Part shown: one piece after another, positions 2,404 through 24,000 of the stretch | Numbering within the stretch: position 1 is the stretch's first letter | Layout of the letters: each line of letters opens with the position of its first letter | Origin: Candidatus Woesearchaeota archaeon | GTDB taxonomy: Archaea; Nanobdellota; Nanobdellia; Woesearchaeales; WJKV01 | Assembly (NCBI GenBank): GCA_014728875.1 | Contig: WJKV01000011.1 | Span: 55-24,054, forward strand | DNA: 24,000 bases | Direction of reading: 5' to 3' | The notes under the pieces: generated by a model | Seen by the model: only the letters and a program-made list of their open reading frames with translations | Told to the model about the DNA's origin: nothing | The model's database searches: none | Position numbers and translations under genes: made by a program

Positions 2404-3888
2404 ATGAAAAAAGGCCAAGTCACACTGTTCATCATCATCGGAATTATTATCCTGGTAGTATTCTTTTTCTTGTTCTACATAACCCAAAGGTTGACTCCTG
2501 GCGAGCAGGAAATGGAGCAGTTGACTGTCGCAAAAAGCAAGCTGAGGAGCGCGCCTCTGCGTTATTATGTCGAGAGCTGTATCCAGAAATCTTTTGAAGA
2601 GGGTCTGAACATGATTTCCCTGCAGGGAGGCAGGATATTTATGGAACAGCCGTACAGCACTCTGCCCTGTTCTGCTGACGGGCAGAACAGCTGCACACCG
2701 GCTTCAAAAGGAGGTAGTGTTAAAAAAATTATAGGAAACAAAGAGTATCATGTGAATTATCTGATAACCAAGAATCCTAACATTTTTCCTCAGCACCAAT
2801 ATCCCAGAGAGCCGTGCGTAAAAAATTTCAGCTGGCCGTACTGCAATTTCACTTATGACAAGGATGCTGCTGTCGAACCCAGGCTCGGCTGGAATTATCT
2901 TCCTCCGTTGAAAGCAAGCAAAGGGTCTATTGAAGCCCAGCTGGAAAATTATGTTGCTAAGAAAACAAACGACTGCATAGATTTCGGAGAAATAACCAAT
3001 ATAACCGGCATCCCCTACAGGATCGGGGAAGGTGACGCAGAAGTTGACATTGTTTTCACTGCGCAAGATACAAGAATTATTGTGGATCTGCCTTTGCAGA
3101 TAACAGGCGCCGGCATGCAGACTACTTCTGATGTTGAGCATTTTGAATTGTTGACGAAGATGAAGTATGAATATCTGCATACTTTCATTTTCAACCTGAT
3201 AAACGAAGAAATAGCAGACTTGAACTTCAGCATCTCAGAAGATTATACAGAACTTGACAGCTACAGGCAAGGTTATTCGCTCACGATAGAAAAGGATACA
3301 GAAGCAAGGACCGGCGATGACATGATAATTATATCCGATGATAATATCCAAATAGACGGCAAGCCGTTAAAGTTCCAGTTCGTGCGCGAAGATGTGCCGC
3401 CTGTTCTTAATTATGTGACAGACGGCAGTGCTCCTGGCTATGACGCAATCTGGCAGTTCCCGCCGGATCCCAGTGTGCAGACGATGACAAAGACAATAAG
3501 ACCGGGCGCGGTCGACATGAACGAAGATGAACCCAATTTTATATTCTCTTACAGAGGATGGGGAAGAGATTATTTTGAGATGTTTGTCGCAGGGCAATTG
3601 AAAAGATGGAATCCTGGCCAGAATGAAGGATGGCAGTTTAACCCGAGCAATGGCCGCGGATCCATTGTTGTAAACAGGACAAGGGATACGAATCCTCCCA
3701 AACATAATTTCACTATCCGGGTAAGCGACGGACAATTGTTTGATCAACAGACAGTGAGATTATTCGTGGTTAACATTCCAGGGATGCCGGGCGCGCCAAC
3801 TGTTCCGCCTGCACCTGCTGCGCCGCCGGCATCAGGATTTCCCAGCCTGCCGCCGCCACCGCCAGCACCGACCACTGGTTCCTCTTAG
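2404..3888 (+). CDS. Large class III signal-peptide (pilin-like) protein with a cadherin/Ig-like module and a Pro-rich C-terminal tail
   Basis: The track ORF starts at 2257, but that start overlaps the previous gene. The in-frame ATG at 2404 is preceded by GAGGAG (about 2394) and yields MKKG|QVTLFIIIGIIILVVFFFLFYI, a class III signal with G at -1 and Q at +1. Near the C-terminus, NFTIRVSDGQLFDQQTVRLFVVN resembles the last strands of cadherin-like/He_PIG Ig domains. The protein ends in PGMPGAPTVPPAPAAPPASGFPSLPPPPPAPTTGSS. Confidence 0.8.
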   Translation: MKKGQVTLFIIIGIIILVVFFFLFYITQRLTPGEQEMEQLTVAKSKLRSAPLRYYVESCIQKSFEEGLNMISLQGGRIFMEQPYSTLPCSADGQNSCTPASKGGSVKKIIGNKEYHVNYLITKNPNIFPQHQYPREPCVKNFSWPYCNFTYDKDAAVEPRLGWNYLPPLKASKGSIEAQLENYVAKKTNDCIDFGEITNITGIPYRIGEGDAEVDIVFTAQDTRIIVDLPLQITGAGMQTTSDVEHFELLTKMKYEYLHTFIFNLINEEIADLNFSISEDYTELDSYRQGYSLTIEKDTEARTGDDMIIISDDNIQIDGKPLKFQFVREDVPPVLNYVTDGSAPGYDAIWQFPPDPSVQTMTKTIRPGAVDMNEDEPNFIFSYRGWGRDYFEMFVAGQLKRWNPGQNEGWQFNPSNGRGSIVVNRTRDTNPPKHNFTIRVSDGQLFDQQTVRLFVVNIPGMPGAPTVPPAPAAPPASGFPSLPPPPPAPTTGSS

Positions 3889-3914
3889 ATTTCTATATGC
3901 AGATTACCACAAGA

Positions 3915-3946
3915 TTTATAAACTAAATTATGTTCAAATTATAAAA
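3915..3946 (+). promoter_or_regulatory. Two TATA-like elements (TTTATAAA 3915..3922; TTATAAAA 3939..3946) upstream of the giant gene
   Basis: They sit in the 87-nt intergenic gap before the ATG at 3976. The proximal one is 30 nt from the ATG. The distal one would leave a leader containing GAGAGGGTTGG. This suggests an internal promoter for the giant gene. Confidence 0.35.
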
Positions 3947-3975
3947 ATCGGGTTGAAAGAGAGGGTTGGATAGGT

Positions 3976-4071
3976 ATGAAGAAAAGAGGTGGAAAGAGTA
4001 GAGTATCAAGATCATTGTTTTTGATTTTTCTCTTCTCACTATTTGTAATTTCAGCCTGTTTTGTTTCTGCA
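3976..4071 (+). other. Sec-type signal peptide of the giant protein (32 aa)
   Basis: Basic n-region (KKRGGKSRVSR), hydrophobic core LFLIFLFSLFVI, and a small-residue site VSA|T. Confidence 0.6.
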
Positions 4072-7000
4072 ACCTGCTGCGTGAATGAGCAGACAAGCTT
4101 CACAAGCACTGCTGTTGATGTTACATGCATTGATAACCTGCCAAGCACACAGTGTTTCAGCGGTTTCTTTTCAAATGCTACAACATGCAAGGATGTCCAG
4201 CAATGCGGCTGTTGTGTCTGCAATTATGGCAGTGCGAATCCTACTGTTTATAAAGGAGGGGATTTGAGGGTCAGCAACAATTTCTGCGCAGCTTTCTGCG
4301 CTCCTTATTCTTATAATCTTATTCCTGGTCTTACAACCGCGTCCTGCAGCCAACAGGAAAATGCGACAGGAATCAGCGGTTATGTTTTTGACAGTGACGG
4401 AAATCCTGTTCACGGCGCACAGGTCACAGAGACAGGGGGAAGCAGTGATGTGACAGATGCGCAGGGCAAGTATAGCTTGTCAGTTTTCCAGCAGACAACA
4501 ACAGTCACCGCTTCAAAGGCGAATGTCCAGAACAACATAAATGTAAATGTCGCAACAAAAAAGACAGGGTGGAACATAACCCTCGATCTGGCAGCAGTGA
4601 GCGCAGATCTCGTCGGAAAGATAACGCCCCTGATAAGCGGTGTTCCGAGTCCGACCCCTTTGTCGAATGTTGTTGTGACTGTGACAGACGGCGTGAATCA
4701 GTTTGCTACAGAGACAGACGTTGCAGGCGAGTACGAATTCATCGCCATACCCATCTCAGACTATGCATTGACAGCCAACAGGTGCGGATTTTTCCCTGAA
4801 AGCGCGCAGGTCTCTGTAACTGCGCCATTGACAAGAAAAGACATCTCATTAAGAAGCGCGCCGCAGGAAACATTGACCGGCGTTGTAAAAGATTTGCAGA
4901 ACCGCCCAGTGAAAGATGCAGATATAGCAATAAGTCCCAAAAGGGGCATTGTCCAGAAAAGCGATGAGCAGGGGATCTATCGGGTGACTAATCTGGACAG
5001 CAATTGCCAGTATACTGTAACTGCTACAAAAGCCCCGCAGTATCAGGACAGCTCAAAAACAAAGAGCATATATGCGACAGATCCATTGACAACAAACACT
5101 CTGGATTTCGTCCTTGAGCCCAGTGTGATGTTTGATTTCTGTACAGATATTGGAGACTGCCGGGGCGAAGATCTCATTCTTGGAACGCCGGATGACTGCG
5201 GCTGTCCGCCCAACTATGTTTGCAATCAATTGACAGGAAACTGTGACAGGAAGCCGACAATCGACTGCTGCGATTATGATTTCCTGTGCCAGCCGCCGCA
5301 GGCCAGGAGCGGAGTCACTGCGCAATGCGGGAGCGAAAAAGAGACTTGCAGCAATGTGTGCGCTGAAATTATTAATTGTCCAGCAGATGAAAAACTGAGC
5401 AATCAGAATACGGACGGCGTCTGCAAATGCGCAGGAGAAACAGTGACCATACTTCAAAGCCTTGCAGACCAGTATGGTTTTGAGAATACAGCAGGCAAAT
5501 ACTGTTGTCCGTTTTCTCCTGTAAGCATCAGCGAAGTGCCGTGCGAATTCCAGCAGAAAGCTGCAATCGTCGGGATTGTTGTGAGCAGGATCGACGGAGA
5601 GCCAATAGACGCAACAGTAACTGCTGATCCCAATACTGCCGGAGAACAAAGCACGATGAGCAGTTCTGTTGACGGTTCATATGTCTTGTTTGTGGACCCA
5701 AATATAGACCATACCATTAATTTTAAACGGCCTCCGCTGTACGAGCCAGAGACAAGAGTTGTCAGGGCTGGGAACCTGGCAGTGGGCGAAACTTTCACTC
5801 TGGATGTCAGTCTTGGAATCGTCGCGCGCACCTGCGACTATCCTTCCACCCCAGAAGTTCCTGATTTTGTAGCTGAAAATGTAGTATGTAAGAACCAGGC
5901 AAGACTTACATGGAACAATGAGTATTGCAGGAATACAGATGGTGTGCAGTCTTTTATAATTACTGCAGATAATTTGAACAAGACCTATGTTGTAAGTCCT
6001 GACAACGACGAACTGATAATAAAAGATCTGGACTGGAACGAACTGTATTCCTTTTCCATACAAGCCAAGTATTCAGATCATAACAGTCCGAGGACGAGCC
6101 GGGCAGTGGCTGTTTCTGGTTTTGATCCTGGAGACGAGGAATGCGATGGCAGGTGCGACAGTGAAGAGTTTTGTCTGGACAATACAAAAAGAAGAATGTG
6201 CGACCAGAACAATCATGTTACTACTGACCTGCTTTCGCCCAACTATTTCCCCGACTGTGAACAGCACCAGCAGACAACAGGCAGCGATTATGCATTTGTC
6301 TGCATCGGCTCCGGCGCGAACAAAAGAACAAAATGCGTGGAACAGAGCAAGTGCGGTTTTGACCTTACAAATCCGGTGCCTTTCTTGGGCCTGCTTTTCA
6401 ACAGCCTCAAGTGTTCAAAGAACCCCGCGACCAAGAATGACAGGGGTTGCTATATGGACAGGTCCGGCAGCGTGAAAAATTTCTGTTATCCTTGTCCTGA
6501 TTCAGAAAACATAACATGTTCGGATTACAAGAGCAAATATGCATGCGAGCAAAACAAGTGTCTTGTGCCAGAAGACTGTATATGGTATTCTCCTGAATTT
6601 ACCGGCATGGGCGAGGGCTTCTGCGTCGACAGCGATACTTTGAGCAAGACAAAATACAAGCAAAGAGAACAGATGACTGTCAATCTTTTGAATGAAACAA
6701 TAAAGCAGAGCAAGTGCAGTCTTTGTTCCAAGCAGGGCAAGATCTTCAATAATGTTGGCTGCGAACAGGACGCATGCAGCAGGCTGGGCTTCTGCTATGC
6801 AGAACTTGACAATAAGAACATAAGCAGCTGCGTGCAGTGCAGTTTCACTCCGCCTGTCACCACTTGCAACGATTTCAAGACAGAAGAAAGTTGTATCAGT
6901 GCGACAGGTGAAAATCAAGAATTCGTTCTATTCTCTTCTTCTCTTCCGGAAAGTGCAAAATACAGCGATGATGCCTGCGGCATCGGAAGATGCATCTGGG

Positions 7001-10000
7001 ACGATCAAAGAAACGGATGTTACAAAGATGGTAACGGTGACGGTCAAGCAGATTGTGTCACTATTGAATTTGGCGTGGAAGCTTTCAACCCGATTTGTGA
7101 GCTTGACATAATTCCTCCAACCACCACGCCAAACAGTGACACATTAATATTAGGAAATGCCTCGGACAGGAACACTGTGAATTTCACAGTGTCTGAGGCC
7201 ATTTCTAATTTTTATTATTGCATATACAAGGAAGGAGGGACCAGGTGTTCTGTAATGAAGAAGATCAGCGGCACAAATTCCAACCGAGTCAAAGGAAATG
7301 TTGTTTCTGTACGGCCTGTGGAAGAGTTTAAGAATGCAATATACAAAGAAGGAAACTACAGGATAAGATATTATGCAGAAGATGCGAGCAAGAACAAGGA
7401 ACTGCTGAAAGAAGTGGCTGTCTTTGTCGATACTAAAAAACCGGGCATCACTATACAGAACCAGTCAGTCTGTGTCAACTGCGATCTTCAGATCGACTGC
7501 AGTGCAGAAGAAAGCTATCTTTCCAAACTGGTGTTGAGCATACAGAGCGATGAACTGGTTGCATGCAAAGCATATTTCATAGAGCCGGGGGACAGTCTCG
7601 AGACAACAACACAGAAATCAGACCTGATGATAGACATTGCAACCAGCGGCATTCTTTCTTATCCGAGGGCCGCAGGAGCCTCTGGCCTGGAAGACGGCAA
7701 TTACAGGCTTTATCTTCAGTGCGAAGATGTGGTGGGAAACGAATTCAAGAAACAGTATTTTTTTAAGATTGACCAGCTGAAAGGAATAAAAAATGTCAAG
7801 CCAGTCGGTCCCATTAAAAACACTGCCGTGCGGTTTGAAGCAGACACTGTCAAACCTTCTGACTGCACTATTTCTGTAGACGGAGGGAGCAGGATAAAGA
7901 TGGACCAGTTGGCCGGCGGCAGAAAGCACGCCCTGGAGAAGAACTTTGTAGAGAATAGTTATCATTATTATAACATAAGATGCGATGAGAAATACAGCAT
8001 AACACCTAACAGATGCGACAGCGAAAGGTACGAATTCTCGATAGATAATAGTGCGCCTGCAACTGTTGCCAGAATTAACGACAGACTCTTTGACGAAGAC
8101 GGCTGGACGATTTTCTTGACTGATCCTGCCATTCTAAAACTTTACTCTACAGATGAAAGCGTCAAACAAAACAGGATACAGTTCGGGGCGGACCATATAG
8201 CGTACTGTTATAGGGAGGATCTTCTGCCGTGCGTGCCAGGACAGAGTGTTAACAGCTACAGGGTTTTTGCAGACGCGCAGTCAGGGACAGCAGAGATAAA
8301 GATTCCTGTGGATAAGAATCTTAAGATGTGCTATCATGCGATCGACAAGGGCGGAAGAAAAGAAACAACCAAGTGCGGCAAGATCTTGTTCACTGTGCCT
8401 CCTTCTGTGGACCTAATTTCGCCTGTGAACGATTATGTGACCAATAAACTGCACATAACAGTGAATGCGACGCATGACGCAGATAATGCGACAGATCCGT
8501 TGATAACAACTTTCAACGGCGAGGATTTCATCGCGGTCGCAGCGCAATTAATCGACAGCCAAATCTACGGGATCTTGACATTCCTGTTCCCGGGCCTTAA
8601 CCGGGTAAGTGCAAGAGTCAGGGACGGTGCCGGCGTCTTCGGAGAAGATACTGTTAATGTGTATTACGACAAGGAAGGCCCTTCTATACAGATGACTTCT
8701 GACGAAGTGATCGAATACAACCAGCCGTTCTTGCTGAGCGCAGAGATCAAGGATCTAGAATGGACCTCCATAGACACTGCTGACAATATCGGGGAAGTGA
8801 CAGATGCCGTGGTCGCAATACAAAGCCCTGTCATGAGCAGGACATACAATATGACAAAACAAGGCTCTATGTGGAGCGCTTACATTGTGCCTTCTGTCGA
8901 TTCTGCAGGCTTTGCAGATTTCCTGCCCGGCAAATACAGCATTACCTTCAATGCAAAAGACGGTTTTGGCAATGAAAATTCAAAGCAGTACGAGATAGAG
9001 ATAAAGGATACGATTCCTGCAAACATCACTATAGATCTTCTGACGCCGAACATTCCTCTGCCTCCTTTCAGGGAAGAGGATGTTTTCTATACGAAAGAAA
9101 GGATGCCTGTCATCCGGGTAAGGACGACAGAGCCTGCAGAATGCCAACTAAGGATAAGTTCTATAGCTCCCACAATAACCGAAGACTTTGTCACAAACGA
9201 CAGCAGGACCCATCTTTTCAGCAGCCAGAACTTGCTGAGCTTCAGTCCTGGAAAAGAACAGAGGTTCAGCGCACAGATTGTATGCAGGGATCTTTTTGCG
9301 CAGACAACACAGGATACGAACATTGTGATAGATTATGATGATGTTGCTCCTAATCTGCAGATATTCAGCAGTGAAGGAAAAAATAAGATACACAAAAAAG
9401 GGACTGTCTACTTATTGTCAGAAAGGAATAATGTCGGAGATCTTTCAACGAGAATCTCTGTGACTGACGCCAGGAGAGGAGAGGAAATAAAGTGCGGTTT
9501 GAACTGTTCAAACAGGGGGAAAAGCTGCGGAACGCATCATCAGAATTCGGTGCTGCCTGTGCTGGGTGAAGACACTTTCAAGCGTGTGCAGGAAGAGATA
9601 ATAGATTATGACCTGGAGGTAGATAAGACAGGCGAGTTTAATTATTTGCTGACATGCACGGATAAAGCCAAAAATGCCGCATCCGGAGAATTTACCATTC
9701 TTGTTGAAAAAGAAGAACCGACAGTCAACCTCACTCTTCCTACTATCGGACCTGAGCCTGGAATAAACCTGCAAAGCGCAGACACTGGCTCGCCTGTGAT
9801 TGCAGACATTGGTGCCAGGACCATCTATAACAAGCTTGGCGTCATAGCCGACAGCCAGAGAGAAAACTACAAAAAATTCATCATAGTGGACGGCAAGTCA
9901 GGCAATACAATACCCGTACAATTGATTGCAGACGTGAGCGAGAGGACTGTCTGTAGGTACAGCACTTCTATGCAGGACTTCAACCAGATGCAGAACAGGT

Positions 10001-15021: not shown

Positions 15022-16107
15022 ATGAGACGCAGCTTGTATAAAAGAAAAAAGCAGAACAAGAAAGGCGCAATAGAAGTACAGATGAACTGGATATTCATCG
15101 CGATAATAGGCTGTATCATTCTGCTTTTCTTTGTCACTGTCGCTGTAAAACAGAGATCTGCGTCCCAGCAAAGACTGATCGGAGAAGTTGTAAAGGATCT
15201 GGACAGCTATATCTCGGGCGCGTTATCTTCCACACAGGCAGCCACTGTCATTCCTATCCCTGATTTCGAGGTGCAATTTGACTGCAATGAGTACAGGATA
15301 GAGAAGCAAAGAAATCTCCTGGAGAACAGGGTTGTCTTTGCGACAGACAGCGTCTCGCCGGAAGACAGACAGCTTGTTGTGTGGAGCCTGCCGTGGAACA
15401 TCCCTTATCTTGTGACAAATTTTCTTTATGTCACTGGCCCCGGCGTAAAATATGTTTTTGCATATAAACAGAGCCAGGAGCCAAATTATAAGGAATTTTG
15501 TGAGGAATTAATAACAGACAAGATTGACAAGGAAATTGTATACATCCAGGAAGATGGGACAATAGATTTTGCAAATGAGAACAATTACAAGCTCAAGATT
15601 GTCGTGCTCGGCGGCCACCAGGTCACGCCTCCTGCTTTTGCATATAACGAGAAGACCACGATTCTTATTGTTTCGCCGTTCGACAGGACGCAAAAATATC
15701 CAATCGGCAATCTTGAATATTACCAGTACGGAAAAGAAACAAGAAATTTTGAAAAGGAAGGAGAAACATTGACTTTTATCGGGATCCCTTCCCTGGTCGG
15801 CGCGATCTTTTCTGACAGTTATGAGAATTACAACTGCTTGATGGAAAAAGCTGTAAGAAACCTTAATGTTGTCAATACTATCCTGATAGAAAAGGTTAAT
15901 CTGCTGTCGAGCAAGACAACAGAAAAAGTCGCAGGATGCAGCATATTTTATGGTGATGTGGAATTAGAGCATCTGAGCAGGATGAACAATGCAACCCGAT
16001 ATCCAGAAAGATGGACGGAAAATGCGGGAAAGATAATCAATACCGCGAACCTGCTCGACATACGGAATGAGATAATAGAACAGCAGTCATGTCCGTTGCT
16101 GTATTAA
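15022..16107 (+). CDS. Class III signal-peptide protein, 361 aa, large unknown ectodomain
   Basis: MRRSLYKRKKQNKKG|AIEVQMNWIFIAIIGCIILLFFVTVAV. The ATG abuts the preceding TAG (15019..15021). AGGTGGG SD-like motif is 6 nt upstream. Confidence 0.8.
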   Translation: MRRSLYKRKKQNKKGAIEVQMNWIFIAIIGCIILLFFVTVAVKQRSASQQRLIGEVVKDLDSYISGALSSTQAATVIPIPDFEVQFDCNEYRIEKQRNLLENRVVFATDSVSPEDRQLVVWSLPWNIPYLVTNFLYVTGPGVKYVFAYKQSQEPNYKEFCEELITDKIDKEIVYIQEDGTIDFANENNYKLKIVVLGGHQVTPPAFAYNEKTTILIVSPFDRTQKYPIGNLEYYQYGKETRNFEKEGETLTFIGIPSLVGAIFSDSYENYNCLMEKAVRNLNVVNTILIEKVNLLSSKTTEKVAGCSIFYGDVELEHLSRMNNATRYPERWTENAGKIINTANLLDIRNEIIEQQSCPLLY

Positions 16108-16134: not shown

Positions 16135-16653
16135 ATGAAACTAAGAAGAATACAGGTCAAAAAAAGAGGACAGATACAAACCCTTGAATCTGTTGCAGTG
16201 TTATTTGTTTTTTTCATCCTGCTGGCATTGAGCATGATATTTTATCTTTCATATGCAAAAAGCCAGGAGAGCGGCAGGATGGCAGAAATCAACAGGGAGC
16301 AGGCAATGATGGTGGCGCAGCAGATAATCAACCTTCCTGAATTGAAAAGCTCCAGGAGGGCTGTGAGAGGCGTCAATACAATAGACATTGTCAAGCTGGA
16401 GGCGTTAAAGAATGTCCTGGATACCAACTTTGATCTGCGGAGAGGCATCTATCAGGAGCGTTTCGGTTCGAGCATCATCGATGTTTATGAGATATACCCC
16501 GGGCAGAACGAATGGGCACTATATAGTAATCCTGACCTGGACGCCAAGTTCAGGAACGAATTTTATGTACCTATTTCATTGTACAATTCATTAGACATAC
16601 CAGGCGGCAATTATTCAGCAGGTCTGCTGCACATATTGTATTATGGTGGATAA
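16135..16653 (+). CDS. Class III signal-peptide (pilin-like) protein, 172 aa
   Basis: MKLRRIQVKKRG|QIQTLESVAVLFVFFILLALSMIFYLSY. Confidence 0.8.
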   Translation: MKLRRIQVKKRGQIQTLESVAVLFVFFILLALSMIFYLSYAKSQESGRMAEINREQAMMVAQQIINLPELKSSRRAVRGVNTIDIVKLEALKNVLDTNFDLRRGIYQERFGSSIIDVYEIYPGQNEWALYSNPDLDAKFRNEFYVPISLYNSLDIPGGNYSAGLLHILYYGG

Positions 16654-17214
16654 ATGCTAAAGAAAATAAAAACAAGAAGAGGACAGATGGAGATCATGGG
16701 TCTGCTGGTGATAGTGATGATATTCATAGTTGCCCTGATGTTTGTATTGTTTTTTGTTGCAAGAGGGGATCGCACTGACGCGTTCAGGGCTTTTGACGAT
16801 GAACTGCACGCATACAATACGATCAGCACGATTGTGCAGGCGCACACACCCTGCAGGAGCCTGACCGTAACAGACGTGCTGAAATTTGCCTCGTTCGGAA
16901 ACAACTGGCCCGGGGCGCGGCCTTGCCCAGAGGAAGGAATCCCGATGGCGCCGGAAACTTATGCTACAGAACAGATAGAAACAATGCTGAACAGGTCCCT
17001 GGGCTTTATTGAACAGGATTATCATTTTTATGTCTACAGGGACCAGGATGTAAGAGCAGACGGAACAATCTCAAACTATGTGATAGACATCGTCTCAAGA
17101 AAGGATGTAGCGAGTGCAGAATTATGTGCTGACTATGTTGTGAGCGGGACACAGCCCATAAGCTACCAAGGAGGCACGTTTTTTGTGACCCTGGACATCT
17201 GCGACAAGAGATGA
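16654..17214 (+). CDS. Class III signal-peptide (pilin-like) protein, 186 aa
   Basis: MLKKIKTRRG|QMEIMGLLVIVMIFIVALMFVLFFV. The ATG abuts the preceding TAA. GGTGGA SD-like motif is 4 nt upstream. Confidence 0.8.
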   Translation: MLKKIKTRRGQMEIMGLLVIVMIFIVALMFVLFFVARGDRTDAFRAFDDELHAYNTISTIVQAHTPCRSLTVTDVLKFASFGNNWPGARPCPEEGIPMAPETYATEQIETMLNRSLGFIEQDYHFYVYRDQDVRADGTISNYVIDIVSRKDVASAELCADYVVSGTQPISYQGGTFFVTLDICDKR

Positions 17215-17357
17215 AAAACATGAAAACGCAAAACATACTGATAAAAACCAGGAAAGCGGCCCTGTCATTGAGGGCTCTGCTAATAATATTGATTACTGTG
17301 TTCGGCCTGATCATATTGACCTTGCTGGTCACCACTGTTTTGCGAGCATTTAAGTGA
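17211..17357 (+). CDS. Mini pilin-like protein, 48 aa (below the ORF-track cutoff)
   Basis: My translation: MKNMKTQNILIKTRKA|ALSLRALLIILITVFGLIILTLLVTTVLRAFK*. The ATG overlaps the upstream stop (ATGA at 17211..17214) and the TGA is at 17355..17357. It has the same basic-prepeptide plus K-A plus hydrophobic-helix layout as the neighbouring genes and exactly fills an otherwise unexplained 160-nt gap. Confidence 0.55.
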   Translation: MKNMKTQNILIKTRKAALSLRALLIILITVFGLIILTLLVTTVLRAFK

Positions 17358-17374: not shown

Positions 17375-18325
17375 ATGACAACGGCAAAATTAAAAATAAA
17401 AAAGAACAGGAAAGCGTTCCTGATAGGCCTGAAAGCCTTCGTCCTCATAGTATTGGTTCTTTTTGGCCTGTTCATTGCCTATACCTTTTTCATACCCAAG
17501 AGCAAGAGCACAGTAGAGCAGGTCGACCGTTATCTGTGCAGGACTAGCGTGAAGGCGAAAGCAGAGACAAAGATATTAAAGACGCCGAGCCCGGTGAATC
17601 TGGAATGCTATACAAGATTCGCGACCATAGAGCCGTCGAAAAAATACGAATATGAGAAGAAAGACAACAGGATCAGAAAAGGCGTGTCGAGCAAGGAAGA
17701 ATTAAGAGAAGCTTATGCTGATGAACTGGGCGGCTGTTTCTGGCAGATGGGGGGGGAAAACGGCGAATCCCTGTACAATCCTTTCTCTCCGTTCGAATCA
17801 ACAGGACAGGCAAGATGCGTGATATGCTCTACCATAGACATAGACGAAGAGATAATCAAGAAATACGGCGGCACAATAGACAAGTTCAATTCCCATTTAA
17901 GGTCGCACAATTACAAGGACGTCGGCATTGACGTGCCTTACAGCCGGCTGCTCGGCCTGCAGAACAAGGAATTCCCTGATTTCAGGATAGAAAGAAACAA
18001 CAAGCCTATGTCGTACAGTGTTGTGTGGATAATAAGTTCAACACCTGCGAAAACAAGAACAACTGTATATACTGTAGGTCTCGGCATACTTGGCGCAGGA
18101 GGCGGTTATGCTGCAGGCTGTCTTGCAGGATCTGTTATGATGCCGATTCCTCCTTTCAGTCTGCTCGGCTGCGTGGTCGGTGCCGGCGCAGGAGGTGCTG
18201 CCGGCGCAGGCGTGGGCTATGGTGCAGGTGTTATACATACTCTGGCAGAGGACCAGACGTACAGCACCAATACCTTGATCATACCTGCAGATGAAGCAGA
18301 GAAACATTGCGCGCAGTTGTATTGA
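17375..18325 (+). CDS. Class III-like signal-peptide protein with conserved-Cys ectodomain and C-terminal glycine-zipper hydrophobic segment (316 aa)
   Basis: The track start 17354 is a GTG. The first ATG (17375) gives MTTAKLKIKKNRKA|FLIGLKAFVLIVLVLFGLFIAYTFF. The segment at 18074..18238 encodes VGLGILGAGGGYAAGCLAGSVMMPIPPFSLLGCVVGAGAGGAAGAGVGYGAGVIH. It is a paralog of the next gene (see findings). The start choice is uncertain between 17354 and 17375. Confidence 0.75.
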   Translation: MTTAKLKIKKNRKAFLIGLKAFVLIVLVLFGLFIAYTFFIPKSKSTVEQVDRYLCRTSVKAKAETKILKTPSPVNLECYTRFATIEPSKKYEYEKKDNRIRKGVSSKEELREAYADELGGCFWQMGGENGESLYNPFSPFESTGQARCVICSTIDIDEEIIKKYGGTIDKFNSHLRSHNYKDVGIDVPYSRLLGLQNKEFPDFRIERNNKPMSYSVVWIISSTPAKTRTTVYTVGLGILGAGGGYAAGCLAGSVMMPIPPFSLLGCVVGAGAGGAAGAGVGYGAGVIHTLAEDQTYSTNTLIIPADEAEKHCAQLY

Positions 18326-18364: not shown

Positions 18365-19168
18365 ATGAAAAAAAACAAGAAAGCCGTTGTCGGGCAGGCC
18401 TTGTCTGTCATTGTGGTATTGATACTGGTAGTTTTCATATTGTTGATCTTTCTTCCGTTCGGCGAGAAAACAGCAGAAGCAGGCGAGAAGATCATTGCTG
18501 ACACAAAGTGCAAGACCAGTGTCGAGCTTGCGGCAAGGAGCGAAAAGGTGTGGGTCGCAGACATAATCGACTGTCCAACGACCTATCTTGAGATAAAAAA
18601 GAACGATGACGCAAAATACATCATCAGTGAAGCGCTCGCCAGCTGCTGGCATCGCTTCGGCAAGGGAGAGCTTAAACTGTTCAAGCATCATCCTGACACT
18701 TTCGGTTCGCAGGACAAAGCAGTGTACTGCAATGTCTGCCATGTTTTTGAGTTCGGCAAGGATGTTGCGCCTATTACAGATCTCGGAGGGTATCTTGCTA
18801 GAAACAATGTGTCTAGGAAATTTTCATTGCGCTCAGAGCCTGTATCTTATTTTGAATATCTTCAAGGAAAATACATAGATGAAAGCACAAAAGGAATATA
18901 TGCCAACAACATCTTTGCAGGAACGACAATTGAGACTAACAGGCCCTACGCAGCGGTTTTTGTATATACCAAAGATCCTTCATTTTTTGCCAGCAACTAT
19001 CTTTTTTTCAGGGCGCAGAGGGCTGAAACCTTCATCGGACAGATATGGTACGGCGGCCTCGGCCTCATGTTCGGCAAAAGCATCGGTGCAGAATGGTGGA
19101 GCCATACTGTCCTGTTGCCGTATGAAAAAGGAAAACTGCAGAATGTGTGCGAGATCCTGGAAGAATGA
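18365..19168 (+). CDS. Class III-like signal-peptide protein, conserved-Cys family paralog (267 aa)
   Basis: MKKNKKA|VVGQALSVIVVLILVVFILLIFL. It shares C[KR]TSV, C-x-T, A-x-x-L-x-x-C-[WF]-x-x-x-G-x-G, C-x-[VI]-C and a C-terminal C-x-x-L with the 17375 gene. Confidence 0.8.
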   Translation: MKKNKKAVVGQALSVIVVLILVVFILLIFLPFGEKTAEAGEKIIADTKCKTSVELAARSEKVWVADIIDCPTTYLEIKKNDDAKYIISEALASCWHRFGKGELKLFKHHPDTFGSQDKAVYCNVCHVFEFGKDVAPITDLGGYLARNNVSRKFSLRSEPVSYFEYLQGKYIDESTKGIYANNIFAGTTIETNRPYAAVFVYTKDPSFFASNYLFFRAQRAETFIGQIWYGGLGLMFGKSIGAEWWSHTVLLPYEKGKLQNVCEILEE

Positions 19169-19222
19169 AAGAATGAAAAAGTATTAAAATCGAAAAGAAT
19201 TTTATCTGAAACTATAGAAATG

Positions 19223-19230
19223 TTTATATA
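19223..19230 (+). promoter_or_regulatory. TATA box-like TTTATATA upstream of the small-pilin sub-cluster
   Basis: Near-consensus archaeal TATA in the 95-nt gap after 19168. The ATG at 19264 lies 41 nt downstream of the element start. Confidence 0.4.
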
Positions 19231-19263
19231 ACGAAATTGTTTATTTTGACAGGCAGAGCAAAC

Positions 19264-19425
19264 ATGAACCTGAATAACCTAATTAAAAGAGATAAAAAAG
19301 GCGAACTGAGCGTAAGAACAATAATCATAATAATTATTGTGATAGCCACTCTTGTAGCTCTATTGTTAATCCTTGCGTCAAAAGGAAAACTCATGACAGA
19401 AATCTGGGGGAAAGGTCCGTTCTGA
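19264..19425 (+). CDS. Small class III signal-peptide (pilin-like) protein, 53 aa
   Basis: The track ORF begins at a TTG (19237). The first ATG (19264) gives MNLNNLIKRDKKG|ELSVRTIIIIIIVIATLVALLLILASKGKLMTEIWGKGPF. Confidence 0.6.
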   Translation: MNLNNLIKRDKKGELSVRTIIIIIIVIATLVALLLILASKGKLMTEIWGKGPF

Positions 19426-19428: not shown

Positions 19429-19677
19429 ATGAAAACAGTCAGCGTGATTATAGCCATCATAATCGGAATCATCATCCTATTGGTTGTTTTGTATGTTTTT
19501 CTGCCGAAATTGATGCAGGCTGACGAGAGCAGTGAAGAATTCCTGAAACAAACATTGGAAAAACAAACAATGCGCGCAGAAAATTATGATTTTCCAGAAT
19601 TCGAGCATCCAAAAGATTTAAATAGTAGAGATGCCAAAATACCAATATTGAGCGATTATAAAGAGGTGTTGCTATGA
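19429..19677 (+). CDS. Small single-pass membrane protein with acidic C-terminal region, 82 aa
   Basis: MKTVSVIIAIIIGIIILLVVLYVFLPKLMQADESSEEF... has a hydrophobic N-terminus but no basic prepeptide or G/A cleavage motif. The IIIGIIIL core resembles the helix of the 2404 gene product. Confidence 0.6.
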   Translation: MKTVSVIIAIIIGIIILLVVLYVFLPKLMQADESSEEFLKQTLEKQTMRAENYDFPEFEHPKDLNSRDAKIPILSDYKEVLL

Positions 19678-19982
19678 TGAACAAAAAAGGACAAGGCTTA
19701 TCATTGAGTGTTATTATTATTGCCATTCTTGCAATCTTGGTATTGGTTGTTCTTGCAGTGATATTCACAGGTAAAACAGGACAGATCACAACCAAGATAG
19801 AGAAAGGCTGCATAGAGAACGGAGGACAGTGCGTCGACAGGGACGAATACATCTCATGTGACGAGCCTGCTTTGAACATGGTTGATGTCGAAAGAATGGG
19901 CTATAAATGCGCCAATCCTGACCAGTACATGTGCTGCGCGTCTGAAGCGATTGCTGCATCCCTGAGAACAAGAGAGCAGTAA
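19674..19982 (+). CDS. Small class III signal-peptide pilin-like protein with Cys-rich C-terminal domain, 102 aa (candidate filament subunit)
   Basis: MMNKKG|QGLSLSVIIIAILAILVLVVLAVIFTG, then GCIENGGQCVDRDEYISCDEP...YKCANPDQYMCCAS. AGAGGTG SD-like motif is 7 nt upstream. ATGA overlap with the preceding gene. Confidence 0.8.
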   Translation: MMNKKGQGLSLSVIIIAILAILVLVVLAVIFTGKTGQITTKIEKGCIENGGQCVDRDEYISCDEPALNMVDVERMGYKCANPDQYMCCASEAIAASLRTREQ

Positions 19983-20005
19983 TTTCTATTTTCTTCTTTT
20001 TTCTT
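19983..20005 (+). terminator. Oligo-T/pyrimidine tract, putative archaeal intrinsic terminator
   Basis: TTTCTATTTTCTTCTTTTTTCTT (includes a T6 run) lies directly after the stop at 19982 and just before a TATA-like element. Confidence 0.4.
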
Positions 20006-20014
20006 ATCACAACC

Positions 20015-20022
20015 TTTATATA
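20015..20022 (+). promoter_or_regulatory. TATA box-like TTTATATA
   Basis: Ends 26 nt upstream of the ATG at 20049. This spacing fits a leaderless or near-leaderless transcript, and there is no SD-like motif in between. Confidence 0.45.
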
Positions 20023-20048
20023 TCTTATTTATTTAGTTTGAACATAAA

Positions 20049-20336
20049 ATGGGGAAAAAGAGAGTTGATAAGAAAGGGCAGGGACTGCCTTTGAGTGTAA
20101 TAATAATTCTGATAATCGCTGCTATTACTCTTGTTGTTGTGATTGCAATTTTTACCAGGCAGGCGCACAAAGGAGAGCAGCGATTGGATGCAATAACAAA
20201 CCCGATAGAATACAAGGCAGCATGCTTGAACCAGAATCAGATGGAATATGAAGAATGCGTGGGATTCTGCAAAAAGTCTGCAGAAGAAAATCAAAGAGAA
20301 GAGATTTGCGTGCTGGTCAAAGAAAAGCCAAAATAG
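20049..20336 (+). CDS. Small class III signal-peptide pilin-like protein, 95 aa (paralogous N-terminus to the 19674 gene; candidate filament subunit)
   Basis: MGKKRVDKKG|QGLPLSVIIILIIAAITLVVVIAIFTRQ has the same KKGQGL[SP]LSVIII start as the 19674 gene. The C-terminal part contains 4 Cys (ACLNQ...ECVGFC...ICV). Confidence 0.8.
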   Translation: MGKKRVDKKGQGLPLSVIIILIIAAITLVVVIAIFTRQAHKGEQRLDAITNPIEYKAACLNQNQMEYEECVGFCKKSAEENQREEICVLVKEKPK

Positions 20337-20344: not shown

Positions 20345-21040
20345 ATGAAAAAAAACAAAAAAGCTCAATTAGACTGGTTCGTAAAGGAATTAGGAGTATT
20401 GGTATTGGTGATCATCATTGCATTTGTCATATTCGCTTTGGGAACCAAGATATATAAATCGTTCTCTCCTACGCAGAGCGCAGAGATCAGCCTGCAGCTT
20501 CTCGCAGACGGCAGTGAGATTCTTGTGAATGGAACATACACAAAAGGCTATAATATTTCAAAGTGTTTCACCAATTTTGCATTGGAGAATGATGAAGCTC
20601 TTGTTGGCTTCAATGTCGGAAGGGACACCAGCAGAAAATACAACAGGCCCGAGCCCAGCGTGTGTCCCATGCAGTTCAGCTGTCTTGTCATCTGCGACCA
20701 AGGGGGCTGGACAAGAAGAAATATACTGGGGCCCGGCAGCGACATGTGCAAAGAGGATTCGCGGCTGGAGCATAAACTAGTGAGGAATGTAAGAAATTTC
20801 TATTATCTTAGGAAAGGCAGCTGGGAAGACCTGAATTATTTCGGAGACGAAGGAAGGGTAGAAACCTGGGTCCTGGAAAGAATAGGGAGCCCTGGCAACT
20901 GGAACATAAGAATAAAAGAAGGAGATATTGCAGGACTGAAAGCGTGCGAAAATCTCAAGATCTTGCCCAGGATAACAATCGCGCAGACCACAACGACAGC
21001 AGCAGGCACTGCAGCCAAAACAGCAGGCGCCGGAAATTAA
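20345..21040 (+). CDS. Class III-like signal-peptide protein, 231 aa
   Basis: MKKNKKA|QLDWFVKELGVLVLVIIIAFVIFALG. The first 20 nt (ATGAAAAAAAACAARAAAGC) are nearly identical to the start of the 18365 gene. Thr/Ala-rich C-terminus: TTTTAAGTAAKTAGAGN. Confidence 0.78.
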   Translation: MKKNKKAQLDWFVKELGVLVLVIIIAFVIFALGTKIYKSFSPTQSAEISLQLLADGSEILVNGTYTKGYNISKCFTNFALENDEALVGFNVGRDTSRKYNRPEPSVCPMQFSCLVICDQGGWTRRNILGPGSDMCKEDSRLEHKLVRNVRNFYYLRKGSWEDLNYFGDEGRVETWVLERIGSPGNWNIRIKEGDIAGLKACENLKILPRITIAQTTTTAAGTAAKTAGAGN

Positions 21041-21084: not shown

Positions 21085-22023
21085 ATGAGGATATTTTCTG
21101 AAAAAAGAGGCATAATAAGCGAGCAGTTGTTTATGATATTCAGTCTTATTGTAGTTGTGATATTCACCATTGTTGCAGTAAGATATACCAATGGCCTGGC
21201 AACAGACCTGCTCTTCAAGCAGGATTATTATGCTCACGACATATCTTTTTTGATTGCGACCAGCATAGGCGCGCCAGGGATAGTCATTTATGATTATTCT
21301 ATAAGTGAGGATGCAAAATTCACTATAGATTCAGCTTTTGTCAATATCGCTCTGAAAGATGAAGAAACACAGCAGAGAGCATTACAGTATTTGTCGCCTT
21401 CTAAATATTATCACATAAACAAGGCTGATTTTGAGTTCAAGACTGCAGAAGACCTTACAAAACTGCAATTAATGAATTATGACGAAGAGTTCGTTGCCAC
21501 GCAGCCTGTTTATTACACCGATGAAGAGCTGGACTGCATGCAGTACTTGAATTATGATTCTAAATCAGACATCAACAGCAAAAAAATTGTGATTGATCCT
21601 GGAAGGGGCGGGAGTGATGGCGGTATCAAAGAAGAAGACAACAAAGACCAGAACCTGCAGAAAGGAAAGAACTTGTTCGCCGCCCTGGGCGGACAGCTGG
21701 CAGCAGGCCCTTCTGTCGTGATGACGCGGGACAGGGATGTTTCTGTTTCCCAGGAAGAACGGAACAATATTGTCGGAGACATGTTCATCAGCATACACGG
21801 CCTTCATAAGAAAAAGAACGAAGAGATTGTAATCGGAAAACCCACAAGAGAGAACAAGAAGCTTGCTTGCTTGCTGTCGAAAGAACTAGGAATAGAGCAG
21901 GTCAGACAGGCATCCGACAACTACATCGAAAACAATCCGTCTTCAATCACAGTCGCACTGTATCTCGGCCCCGGGAAGCATGCGAACGCAATTGCAAATA
22001 GTGTGAGGTCTTATTATGTTTAG
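21085..22023 (+). CDS. Class III signal-peptide protein fused to an Amidase_3 (N-acetylmuramoyl-L-alanine amidase)-like domain, probably degenerate
   Basis: N-terminus MRIFSEKRG|IISEQLFMIFSLIVVVIFTIVAV. The C-terminal part (about 21586..22015) is IVIDPGRGGSDGG...LFAALGGQLAAGPSVVMTRDRDVSVSQEERNNIVGDMFISIHGL...KKLACLLSKELG...ITVALYLGPG. It tracks the Amidase_3 consensus ivIDpGHGGxDpGa...V.ltR..D..vsL.eR...an...aDlfiSiHaNa...s..LA..i...l...avLvElgf, but has R in place of the GHGG His (codon 21604..21606). Confidence 0.7.
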   Translation: MRIFSEKRGIISEQLFMIFSLIVVVIFTIVAVRYTNGLATDLLFKQDYYAHDISFLIATSIGAPGIVIYDYSISEDAKFTIDSAFVNIALKDEETQQRALQYLSPSKYYHINKADFEFKTAEDLTKLQLMNYDEEFVATQPVYYTDEELDCMQYLNYDSKSDINSKKIVIDPGRGGSDGGIKEEDNKDQNLQKGKNLFAALGGQLAAGPSVVMTRDRDVSVSQEERNNIVGDMFISIHGLHKKKNEEIVIGKPTRENKKLACLLSKELGIEQVRQASDNYIENNPSSITVALYLGPGKHANAIANSVRSYYV

Positions 22024-22537
22024 GATGAACAAGAAAGGATTCACATTCAACCAGCTTTTTAAACTGCTTGAACTGGCTTTTCTTCTAATCATTATCCTGT
22101 CATTCGTTTTTTTGACAAGACACACTGTGCAGAAAAGCACAGACACCAGCAGTGCAGAAGCGTATTCTTATCTTCACAGCATGCTGTATTCAAAGAACGG
22201 CATTTTATACCATGATTCAGACATAGACAGGCAGTATCCCGGAATAATAGATGTTAGTAGATTCAATGACATCTATCTGGACAGCAGTATGCTGCTGAAC
22301 CTCTCAGAGAATGTCGAGCTGCCTGCTGCAAAGCTCGCCCTGCTTGACCAGAGCGGCATGGTTAGGGAGGCATACTGGCATAAGAAATGGTACGATAGAC
22401 TTTATCCAAAAGCAGGCGGCAGAGGTGTCGGAAGCCCGAGACAGCTCTATCAGGACCTTTATGTCCTGAAAAGAACAGCAGGAGGAAGGCTTGAACCTGC
22501 GTATCTTTCAATAGAGCTGATAGTGCCGAGAAGATAA
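22016..22537 (+). CDS. Class III signal-peptide (pilin-like) protein, 173 aa
   Basis: MFRMNKKG|FTFNQLFKLLELAFLLIIILSFVFL. GAGGT at 22005..22009 is 6 nt upstream of the ATG at 22016, which overlaps the upstream gene by 8 nt. An alternative ATG is at 22025. Confidence 0.78.
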   Translation: MFRMNKKGFTFNQLFKLLELAFLLIIILSFVFLTRHTVQKSTDTSSAEAYSYLHSMLYSKNGILYHDSDIDRQYPGIIDVSRFNDIYLDSSMLLNLSENVELPAAKLALLDQSGMVREAYWHKKWYDRLYPKAGGRGVGSPRQLYQDLYVLKRTAGGRLEPAYLSIELIVPRR

Positions 22538-22572
22538 AAATACATCTTTGAAAAAGGAAAAATAAAAGGAAA

Positions 22573-23187
22573 ATGAGAAAAAAGTTATTCAGAAACAAGA
22601 AAGGAGCAATATCGAACGTTTTTGAACTGATCGCATCTGTGATATACTATTTAGTGCTGTTCACTATATTCATGGTTCTTTTTTCTTATATGGCCGCCAT
22701 ATTGGAATACAAGCTTGACAGCAATTATCTTTATTTTTCGAATGACATTTCTGCGTCAAGCTATTTGAAAACCCCTTTAAGCTTTGACCCTGACATGACA
22801 GTATATGATGTAATCCAGAAATCTGCAGCAGACCAGGATTATGCAAAGATAGGGGCGGAGACCAACAGACTCTTTTCTCCTTTCAAGAACAAGTTCTGGC
22901 ATGTGATGTTGTGGGAGCTGCAGCCTGACAACTCCGGCAAGAGCGAGAAAAGCAAAATACTGGACTATTACAAGGAAAAGGCTTCTTATGAAGTTTTGAT
23001 AGCAGAAGACAATAAACCGCAGCAGGTGGCTGATTTGAACAGCAGACAATTACTGAACATTGCCAAGCAGGGCGAAAGGCCTAGCTGGGAAAATTTCCAG
23101 AAGATGTTCGTGTTCAGACAGATTCCTTTAGAGATGAATGGAGTGCAAAAGGAAGCCTTGTTCGTATTCGCACTGGGTGATTCATGA
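22573..23187 (+). CDS. Class III signal-peptide (pilin-like) protein, 204 aa
   Basis: MRKKLFRNKKG|AISNVFELIASVIYYLVLFTIFMVLF. AAAGGA lies 4 nt upstream. Confidence 0.78.
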   Translation: MRKKLFRNKKGAISNVFELIASVIYYLVLFTIFMVLFSYMAAILEYKLDSNYLYFSNDISASSYLKTPLSFDPDMTVYDVIQKSAADQDYAKIGAETNRLFSPFKNKFWHVMLWELQPDNSGKSEKSKILDYYKEKASYEVLIAEDNKPQQVADLNSRQLLNIAKQGERPSWENFQKMFVFRQIPLEMNGVQKEALFVFALGDS

Positions 23188-24000
23188 TGAGATTAGTCAG
23201 AAACAAAAAAGCAGTATTGAGCTTCTTTCTGGTAGTTGTTGCCACATTCGTATTCGCTTATGCATATTTCAAGCTGGGCGGAACAGTCGGCCCTGTGACA
23301 AAACTGGTAGGAAACAATGAATTCGTTCTTGTCCAGCAGTATGAGAAAGGGGAAGCTGCCAGGCTCTACCTTGACCTGGCTGCGCATAACAGCAAGAACA
23401 AGGCGTTGTATCTTTTCGAGCAGAACGGCCATTTTCCAGACTGCGGCAAGAACGGCTTGTACTTTTTTTGGAAAAATGAAGACAATACATGCTATCCCAC
23501 AGACCATTCGATTTCAAACGGCCTGAGCACTGTGTTTATCCGGCTGCTGAATCCTTATGTCAAGAATTATAAAAAGATCTTGTTGCCAGAATTTTCTTCT
23601 GCGGACTTGGCATTCAACTTGGCAGAAAAGAAACTGATTGCGTATCCTTTCAACAGCATCAATATAAGCTCAAACCCTCGTTATCTGATAAATCCTGGAT
23701 TTTCAGTGAATCTCAATCATGATTTTGATTACAAGAAAATAAAAGAATTTATAGAAGGCGTGAACAATGAATGCAGAAATCTGCAGGATTTGAATGTTGT
23801 TGGAAAAACTGAATTAAGCAGTTGCGTGGCTGGTTATGTAGATAAATTCAACAAACAAAACAGCCAGATAAGGATCGAGCAGGACTGCGGGCCTGATGCG
23901 CAGATGGACAGGTTCATCGAAGATTATAAATTGTGCGCAGAAAGCCTGGACAGGGGCTGCTACTGCGAGATTGACCTGTCCTTCGACAAAAGCGGGTTGA
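23184..24000 (+). CDS. Class III-like signal-peptide protein, partial (first 272 aa; continues past the window end)
   Basis: Not in the ORF track because there is no stop in the window. My translation from the ATG at 23184 (ATGA overlap with the upstream stop; GGGTGA 4 nt upstream) is MMRLVRNKKA|VLSFFLVVVATFVFAYAYFKLGGTVGPVTKLVGNNEFVLVQQYEKGEAARLYLDLAAHNSKNKALYLFEQNGHFPDCGKNGLYFFWKNEDNTCYP...DRGCYCEIDLSFDKSGL, open to position 24000. Confidence 0.75.
   Translation, partial: MMRLVRNKKAVLSFFLVVVATFVFAYAYFKLGGTVGPVTKLVGNNEFVLVQQYEKGEAARLYLDLAAHNSKNKALYLFEQNGHFPDCGKNGLYFFWKNEDNTCYPTDHSISNGLSTVFIRLLNPYVKNYKKILLPEFSSADLAFNLAEKKLIAYPFNSINISSNPRYLINPGFSVNLNHDFDYKKIKEFIEGVNNECRNLQDLNVVGKTELSSCVAGYVDKFNKQNSQIRIEQDCGPDAQMDRFIEDYKLCAESLDRGCYCEIDLSFDKSGL

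Follow-up and report, generated by a model that had tools for sequence, protein, structure and literature searches.

The 24,000-nucleotide (nt) stretch of Candidatus Woesearchaeota DNA analyzed here (contig WJKV01000011.1, positions 55 to 24,054 of the forward strand; hereafter, the window) is occupied, from position 1175 to beyond 24000, by a set of operons that belongs to the core genome of Woesearchaeota and related Nanoarchaeota and that encodes 16 proteins with class III (type IV prepilin-like) N-termini alongside one giant adhesin-like protein. We read this block, with a probability of about one in two, as a lineage-specific, type-IV-filament-like apparatus that would attach to and breach bacterial hosts and whose assembly machinery would be encoded elsewhere. 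The source organism falls within the kingdom Nanobdellati, i.e., the DPANN archaea, and two of the window proteins are 100% identical to the NCBI proteins GF371_00370 and GF371_00440.

An earlier note on this DNA had listed the 16 class III genes (named here by their start positions), and all 16 starts prove to belong to open reading frames (ORFs) that begin with ATG and encode a lysine/arginine-rich stretch, the last two residues of which are [KR][GA] and which leads into about 20 hydrophobic residues. That all of the genes lie on the + strand also stands; the 0- to 40-nt gaps given for them do not, the true spacing being −8 to +95 nt, with larger gaps of 87 nt (3888 to 3976), 95 nt (19168 to 19264), 66 nt (19982 to 20049), and 44 nt. 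Three of the starts (2404, 17375, and 19264) sit within longer, mechanically called ORFs beginning at 2257, 17354, and 19237 and are kept as the sensible starts because 2404 avoids an overlap with the upstream gene and follows a GAGGAG, and because the N-termini of orthologues agree. The block also includes two genes that the earlier list had omitted: a conserved Sec-signal gene (1175–2377) and a 17th small gene, which encodes a membrane protein (19429–19677).

A permissive rule for the class III motif is satisfied by 16 of the 16 claimed genes and also flags the Sec-type N-terminus of the giant protein, a known false positive of the rule. The background of this permissive rule is 16/242 (6.6%) among opposite-strand ORFs of at least 150 amino acids (aa) in related loci, and under a stricter rule 5 of 31 (16%) Sec-type homologues of the giant protein score. 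In orthologues that share 25 to 45% identity, the motif is kept in 71/76 for g15022, 68/74 for g19674, and 47/61 for g14506. It is present in 47/66 members of the g16135 family, where Gln occupies +1 in 47/47 and Glu occupies +6 in 46/47, and in 28/39 members of the g16654 family, all 28 of which display QxE..G (mostly QMEIMG). Homologues of g15022 have Glu at +3 in 56 of 71 cases, and the N-termini of g2404 homologues follow [KR][ASG]-Q-[VIL]-[TS] throughout. Overall, Gln is found at +1 in 7/16 window proteins, and it is fixed in the g16135 and g16654 families and frequent in those of g14506 and g19674. These fixed acidic or polar residues at +1, +3, and +6 recall Glu5 of bacterial pilins. 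Conservation of the motif to this degree suggests that a peptidase or an assembly system recognizes it and that it is not a mere signal anchor. In Methanococcus, Gln at +1 is reported to be essential for the cleavage of pilins by EppA (PMC4390842). We regard the prepilin-type signal as established as a motif and its cleavage as putative.

Gene order in related genomes, a comparison proposed in the earlier note, shows the same plan widely. Species-representative genomes, scanned with a 14-sequence alignment query, yielded 76 loci, all of them in Woesearchaeota or Nanoarchaeota-type metagenome-assembled genomes, and a scan of metagenomes with a small-subunit profile added 80 loci, for a total of ~150. 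The order of the core genes is kept in the 76 genome loci and in ~30 long metagenome loci. The conserved plan often opens with a g1175-like and a g2404-like gene and continues with the giant genes, one or two of which precede the core in 73 loci; its middle consists of the invariant run g14506–g15022–g16135–g16654, then one to five small Cys-rich subunits, then the g17375/g18365 pair; and it closes with a variable distal set that finishes with g21085-, g22016-, and g23184-like genes, after which comes the gene for replication protein A (RPA). The same genes occur in the same order, ending at RPA, in a close relative (loci L001 and L007; 53 to 77% identity) and in a more distant one (L004 and L005; ~42%), and L001, L004, and L008 have the gene order of the window at 42 to 77% identity. 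In the literature searched, we found no description of the cluster as a unit.

In the long metagenome loci, the small subunit is nearly always inside the same cluster, the exceptions being L115 and L120, in which core-gene matches are absent. In L115 (9950–11128), a small-subunit gene lies directly 3′ of what we take, from N-terminal sequences alone, to be glycine-cleavage genes, and the 10 kb upstream of it contain no recognizable core genes; in L120 (242–1044), a divergent class III block begins with a tandem array of three small-subunit genes. Of note is that many cluster-bearing contigs (L010 to L015, L021, L023, and others), all from TPA_asm records, bear the title "uncultured Methanosarcinales archaeon," and one bears the title "Dehalococcoidales bacterium"; these titles look like mislabels.

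The four core proteins are encoded by contiguous + strand genes. The first (14506–15021; 171 aa, KKRG/QIEAR, with the slash marking the putative cleavage site) belongs to a family found in 58 loci, always directly 5′ of a g15022 homologue; the second is g15022 itself (15022–16107; 361 aa, NKKG/AIEVQMNW); the third (16135–16653; 172 aa, KKRG/QIQTLES) and fourth (16654–17214; 186 aa, TRRG/QMEIMG) are present in 64 and 65 loci, respectively. The g15022 family comprises 1343 cluster representatives (E ≤ 1e-3) in a library of 1.8 billion proteins. Structures were modeled for 2 of the 16 class III proteins, g15022 and g19674. The AlphaFold2 model of g15022, built from 79 homologues and with a predicted local distance difference test (pLDDT) score of 93.6, displays a 57-residue N-terminal helix (residues 13 to 69) followed by a globular domain that is beta-rich and partly helical; in this model, the helix is pilin-like in length, and the globular domain appears to be novel. 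A long N-terminal helix bearing a globular head is predicted in both models.

Two class III-like proteins are paralogues of each other, g17375 (17375–18325, + strand; 316 aa), with extra C-terminal hydrophobic segments of the glycine-zipper kind, and g18365 (18365–19168, + strand; 267 aa). With their N-termini removed, the two families align at an hhalign probability of 99.9, and the combined family is found in 41 loci. No relatedness beyond this pair was detected by hhalign among the globular parts of the families, and BLASTP similarities between window proteins are confined to the N-terminal ~100 residues, for the most part to the signal and hydrophobic helix. Three hydrophobic segments are scored in homologues of g17375 and g18365, more than one would look for in a pilin, and this suggests that these two proteins reside in the membrane. 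The glycine-zipper-like C-terminal segments of g17375 read GLGILGAGGGYAAG...GAGAGGAAGAGVGYGAG.

The candidate major subunit is g19674 (19674–19982, + strand), a small Cys-rich pilin-like protein of 102 aa (NKKG/QGLSLSV) with a six-Cys head. Its family (344 homologues of 80 to 100 aa, in one to five copies per cluster) follows a pattern of KK[GA]/Q-G/E-L-S-x-N, a hydrophobic helix, and six conserved Cys residues. The AlphaFold2 model (pLDDT, 78.5) consists of a helix of ~30 residues (11 to 41) and a three-stranded head. A divergent paralogue, g20049 (20049–20336, + strand; 95 aa, DKKG/QGLPLSV), is 40% identical to g19674 over 65 aa and has a four-Cys head.

Four of the six + strand TATA-like matches in the window coincide with its four largest intergenic gaps. 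They lie at 1126–1133 (TTTATAAA), in the 61-nt gap 5′ of g1175, as the probable promoter of a g1175–g2404 unit; at 3915–3922, in the 87-nt gap 5′ of the giant gene; at 19223–19230 (TTTATATA), in the 95-nt gap, as the probable private promoter of g19264–g19429–g19674; and at 20015–20022, in the 66-nt gap 5′ of g20049. Directly 3′ of g19674, a T-rich tract at 19983–20010 on the + strand (TTTCTATTTTCTTCTTTTTTCTT) may act as an archaeal oligo-T terminator. With promoters assigned from the archaeal TTTAWATA consensus, we infer four transcription units in the window. A TATA-like box within 100 nt upstream of the first small-subunit gene is found in 44/51 loci, versus 0 to 10% for core genes; the small subunit is probably expressed separately and strongly, as would be expected of a main structural subunit.

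The Cys residues in the head of the g19674 family are spaced C-x6-C-x3-5-C-x10-18-C-x5-10-CC, with a C..KGG.C motif (residues 46 to 88 of the window protein, and homologues from L007 to L164), and this spacing agrees with the beta-defensin framework of C-x(4-8)-C-x(3-5)-C-x(9-13)-C-x(4-7)-CC, which goes with a three-stranded sheet; three strands are also seen in the g19674 model. Searched against the PDB, a head-only profile returned borderline matches to gallinacin-11 (E = 0.0056), tick carboxypeptidase inhibitor (0.0094), crotamine (0.023), and beta-defensin 3 (0.03), and beta-defensin 1 is also among its matches. Judging from molecule names, we take 24 of the 25 matches to have the beta-defensin fold, and the six Cys residues and C..KGG.C are in register in the matches. 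Among 114 small-subunit homologues, 12 to 15 match the Pfam AtDEF-like or beta-defensin families. The layout is also reminiscent of big defensins, which likewise join a hydrophobic N-terminal part to a domain of this kind; the E values of the profile matches are borderline (0.006 to 0.03), and a Foldseek search of the whole g19674 model against the PDB gave no match at E ≤ 1e-3. A beta-defensin-like head is thus a lead, not a demonstration, and so small a Cys framework may have arisen by convergence. In the literature found, only cis-defensins are reported from bacteria; if the beta-defensin-like head is real, no prokaryote would have been known to carry a trans-defensin-type domain before, and the head would bear on the origin of trans-defensins.

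The earlier note had described most of the 16 proteins as devoid of a recognizable domain, which holds for most of them; the exception, g21085 (21085–22023, + strand; 312 aa), carries a degenerate Amidase_3 (N-acetylmuramoyl-L-alanine amidase) domain at residues 168 to 284, detected by Pfam (E = 2.8e-9; 37.7 bits, with a gathering score of 27) and by NCBIfam (CwlD-like, 6e-8). Its first Zn-ligand His is replaced by Arg (DPGRGG), and the catalytic Glu segment E.GN is lost, residue roles being those usual for the family. Distant Amidase_3 homologues in L018 (17578–18648), L030 (12376–13422), L032 (18182–19198), and L042 (19023–20072) keep GHGG...H...E.GN. The last cluster gene, g23184 (23184–24000, + strand, running off the window; 432 aa, NKKA/VLSFF), precedes RPA in syntenic relatives; a 3D domain is inserted in its homologues from L022, L028, and L062 but not in the window copy, and M23 plus SLT, likewise absent from the window copy, occur in the product of the last cluster gene of L083, a class III-type protein of 1280 aa. 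A 612-aa class III protein of L042 combines glucosaminidase and VanY domains. A survey of 107 distal class III-type proteins, each 230 aa or longer, found Amidase_3 six times, M23 and 3D four times each, and Amidase_2, Glucosaminidase, and SLT twice each, with VanY and M15 also occurring; the recurrent known domains in this set are murein hydrolases only.

The archaeal envelopes of this group contain no murein, and the hydrolases therefore point to bacterial partners. The host-interaction role that the earlier note had raised as a possibility is strengthened by the hydrolase modules on distal class III proteins of related clusters. Within the lineage of the window, lytic capacity may have been lost; because its Amidase_3 is degenerate and its 3D insert missing, the window copy is probably more adhesive than lytic. 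These findings fit three published accounts. Castelle et al. 2021 (PMC8204110) remark on large murein transglycosylases in Woese- and Pacearchaeota and on 51 families specific to these lineages ("Module 98"); Vigneron et al. 2022 (PMC9723730) propose that the lifestyle is predatory; and PMC12352652 finds Nanoarchaeota prominent among archaea with peptidoglycan hydrolases. The searched portions of these three texts do not describe a co-located cluster or class III signals, and the small Cys-rich subunit is undescribed in the searched portions of the main texts of PMC8204110 and PMC9723730. The "Module 98" and transglycosylase families come from the lineages that carry the present cluster, involve the kind of enzyme seen here, and have been assigned a like role, namely attachment to or attack on bacterial walls, and the families of the cluster are probably among such "Module 98"-type lineage-specific families.

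The giant gene (3976–14499, + strand) encodes, according to Pfam and transmembrane (TM) prediction, a type I membrane protein of 3507 aa that resembles an adhesin. A Sec signal at residues 14 to 32 is followed by ~3250 extracellular residues, with repeats of the CarboxypepD_reg, Big_13, fn3, and Glucodextranase-B families (Pfam) as well as Asp-rich, Ca-binding-like repeats, and a TM helix at residues 3290 to 3308 leads into a Lys/Glu-rich cytoplasmic tail of ~200 aa. The notion that a filament presents this adhesin is not borne out: with its own Sec signal, TM helix, and tail, the giant protein is not simply carried on a pilus tip. Past the TM helix (within residues 3290 to 3507; 13843–14499) and in the tails of the giant homologues of L011, L018, L022, and L023, which are also Lys/Glu-rich, short [DE]xF..L.K[IL] motifs recur (e.g., DVFDELEKL and EVFSKLKKI); the motifs may be docking sites for a cytoplasmic partner.

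The apparatus could operate as follows. Precursors would insert into the membrane, where a PibD/EppA-type prepilin peptidase encoded elsewhere would cut after [KR][GA], often leaving Gln at +1, and the hydrophobic N-terminal helices would then pack into a short type-IV-filament-like fibre, with an ATPase and a platform acting in trans. The small subunit, g19674, would be the main building block of the fibre, and the four core proteins would form its initiating or tip/capping complex, much as minor-pilin sets do in bacteria and the "Tips" do in the Kil system of Myxococcus. Modular pilin-like proteins would bear enzymatic or binding heads, which would work on the bacterial wall while the giant adhesin grips the partner cell.

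Several results weigh against this filament reading. Inspection of the flanks, as proposed in the earlier note, revealed no assembly machinery in cis: no PilB/ArlI ATPase, TadC/ArlJ platform, or A24 peptidase is encoded within 10 kb on either side in the ~150 loci (76 genome loci and 80 metagenome loci, each searched ±10 kb). The block is bracketed by housekeeping genes in this lineage, so the machinery is not merely just out of view. Of the pair of findings that the note had named as jointly telling against a prepilin-type system (homologues never linked to type IV machinery, and a genome lacking a prepilin peptidase), the former describes the ~150 loci. The pilin, archaellin, and class III families of Pfam and NCBIfam, including Class_IIIsignal and Pilin_N, models of the sort that the note had proposed to search with, match none of the 16 proteins, none of 114 small-subunit homologues, and none of 137 members of six other cluster families. 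Neither Foldseek nor PDB profile searches of modeled and cluster proteins found a pilin, and the globular part of g15022 has no PDB match by Foldseek (E ≤ 1e-3) or by profile. Furthermore, the extra C-terminal hydrophobic segments of g17375 and g18365 would make it harder to draw these proteins out of the membrane, the adhesin has an independent anchor, and the hydrolase modules in this window are degenerate (Amidase_3) or missing (the 3D insert). According to one preprint, moreover, DPANN genomes lack the components of type IV pili; a 2026 census lists some type IV filament (TFF) systems as present in DPANN.

Much of this would suit a tethered, non-filament complex, in which the class III-like N-termini are only membrane anchors, cleaved or not, and the extracellular proteins, murein hydrolases and Cys-rich heads among them, form an array beside the adhesin, a fixed patch for contact with no polymerization by an ATPase. 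Machinery that is never in cis, the lack of homology to known pilins, the additional hydrophobic segments of g17375 and g18365, an adhesin with its own anchor and cytoplasmic tail, and the preprint's claim about DPANN all fit such an arrangement, for which the non-filament class III substrates of the Sulfolobus bindosome offer a precedent (PMC3047682). We nevertheless consider it less likely than the filament reading, although it is the main rival: the near-invariant [KR][GA] and the fixed Gln and Glu residues across divergent families imply a constraint beyond anchoring, the predicted helix of g15022 has the length of a pilin helix, and a multicopy small subunit with a private, conserved promoter looks like a building block. 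A more mundane account is that the cluster serves ordinary envelope or S-layer biogenesis and that its N-termini are uncleaved type II signal anchors whose likeness to class III signals is a by-product of the positive-inside rule. The position of the cluster in the core genome between housekeeping genes, the membrane or extracellular location of every member, and the dearth of detected known functions among most members would be in keeping with this account, which is nonetheless improbable given that G/A occupies −1 in >90% of the homologues of two families, versus 6 to 16% in controls, and that murein hydrolases would have no substrate in the archaeal envelope (see also PMC8204110).

We give very little credence to a pseudopilus akin to that of type II secretion, which would export or release hydrolases and other cargo instead of forming an adhesive fibre. 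In number, four pilin-like proteins and a small major subunit may be likened to GspH-K and GspG, and hydrolases are encoded in the same clusters; however, there is no outer membrane in such archaea through which cargo would have to pass, the loci encode neither a secretin nor an ATPase or platform in cis, and the hydrolases are subunit-like rather than cargo-like because they carry the class III N-terminus themselves. The type-IV-filament-like apparatus with machinery in trans stands as our preferred reading. A bolder version, which we entertain as doubtful, is that the cluster encodes an undescribed, phylum-wide surface machine made of class III proteins of entirely new folds, with no ATPase in cis and possibly none at all, that would grip and breach bacteria by means of giant membrane-anchored adhesins, pilin-anchored murein hydrolases, and a mini-subunit with a beta-defensin-like head; were this true, archaea that live on or prey upon bacteria would for the first time have a molecular apparatus assigned to that way of life.

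Several known systems come close to the cluster. The Epd pili of Methanococcus maripaludis ("system 1") likewise draw on many class III pilin-like proteins encoded in one operon and share the +1 Gln that EppA needs (PMC4390842), found here in 7 of 16 proteins, and archaeal TFF system 1 is reported in some DPANN. The Epd cluster, however, holds an ATPase, two TadC-like genes, and its own peptidase, none of which is present in the ~150 loci, and the present proteins match neither Class_IIIsignal (DUF361) nor Pilin_N and have globular folds unlike anything solved. An archaellum finds no counterpart either, with no archaellin or Arl domain match in the window proteins and no ATPase or platform in cis. 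The bacterial FimU-PilVWX-PilY1 set and the Myxococcus Kil Tad pilus resemble the cluster in that a small major subunit and about four larger pilin-like proteins accompany a large adhesin, and the interchangeable Tips of the Kil pilus (PMC12075869) likewise place variable domains outward in contact with prey or host. In contrast with these minor-pilin tips, the cluster is archaeal and has no sequence or fold similarity to them, its adhesin has its own TM helix and tail, and its murein-hydrolase heads are fused directly to the pilin-like N-terminus. Such fusion is reminiscent of the modular type IV pilin PilB of Streptococcus sanguinis (PMC8179133), in which a pilin N-terminal module is joined to a functional C-terminal module; here, the modules are instead murein hydrolases or unassigned folds, and the pilin module is deduced from signal and helix only.

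Class III-like N-termini, which are conserved, and a host-interaction role are the supported parts of the earlier interpretation; its analogy with the Sulfolobus bindosome is not supported, and neither is presentation of the adhesin by a filament. The bindosome and the cluster are alike in having non-canonical class III surface proteins, in a structure that may be tethered and not a long filament (PMC3047682), but the bindosome is built on sugar-binding proteins and ABC transporters, with BasEF alongside, and no substrate-binding, ABC, or Bas-like domain was found in the window or in the 107 distal proteins.

Woesearchaeota are among the most widespread uncultivated archaea. The cluster provides a concrete, conserved candidate gene set for their contact apparatus, the partners of which would be bacteria, not archaea. 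It also gives context for the "lineage-specific hypothetical families" and "large murein transglycosylases" noted earlier and prompts one to ask what assembles class III-signal proteins when their locus encodes no motor nearby.

The searches for machinery turned up several candidates that were rejected. As the earlier note had stated, the window contains no ATPase-type Walker A, there being none in its 20 proteins; the sole match to a Walker A regular expression, AVIFTGKT, is located where the hydrophobic helix in g19674 ends. Walker A ORFs near the clusters are Rad50-like, eRF1, UvrA, CobW, or RadA rather than secretion ATPases, and polytopic ORFs considered as a platform or peptidase are signal peptide peptidase (SPP)/presenilin, PMT_2, LGT, YdjM, or unassigned proteins, with no T2SSF among them. 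In two loci, a presenilin/SPP-family GxGD protease (PF06550, E = 6e-12) is encoded on the opposite strand inside the cluster (L014, 13735–14697; L016, 13803–14765). Prepilin peptidases are GxGD proteases too; with only these two related loci concerned, the finding may be a coincidence.

Upstream of the block, a truncated PlsC-type acyltransferase (2–379, − strand; PF01553, E = 6e-11) marks the housekeeping flank, and RNase P subunit p30, identified by domain search (466–1113), adjoins the block; downstream, RPA adjoins it by synteny with relatives. From 1175 to the end of the window, every credible gene is on the + strand, the contents of the block being the Sec-signal gene, g2404, the giant gene, the other 15 class III-like genes, and the gene for the small membrane protein. 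Base composition is even across the window, in which no tRNA genes, Rfam matches, or notable repeats were found. A mobile-element or viral origin is rejected because of this even composition, the housekeeping flanks, and the presence of the cluster across the phylum.

The first gene, g1175 (1175–2377, + strand), encodes a secreted protein of 400 aa with a Sec signal and no Pfam or NCBIfam match, a conserved partner upstream of the cluster whose homologues precede g2404 and giant genes in 11 loci. The g2404 protein (2404–3888, + strand; 494 aa, MKKG/QVTLF...), with its class III signal and Pro-rich C-terminus, is encoded directly 5′ of the giant adhesin, a conserved position; its family is found in 26 loci, and domain searches found no known domain in it. 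The remaining class III-like proteins, all encoded on the + strand, are g20345 (20345–21040; 231 aa, NKKA/QLDW), g22016 (22016–22537; 173 aa, NKKG/FTFNQL), with phmmer homologues in 20 loci, and g22573 (22573–23187; 204 aa, NKKG/AISNVFE). Three short + strand ORFs encode two class III-like mini-proteins, one of 48 aa (17211–17357), conserved in close relatives (E = 2e-11), and one of 53 aa (19264–19425; DKKG/ELSVR), also conserved in relatives, and the 82-aa membrane protein (19429–19677), which has an N-terminal TM segment and no K/R-G motif (relatives at E = 4e-34). With conservation in relatives at E values from 2e-11 to 4e-34, all three are real genes.

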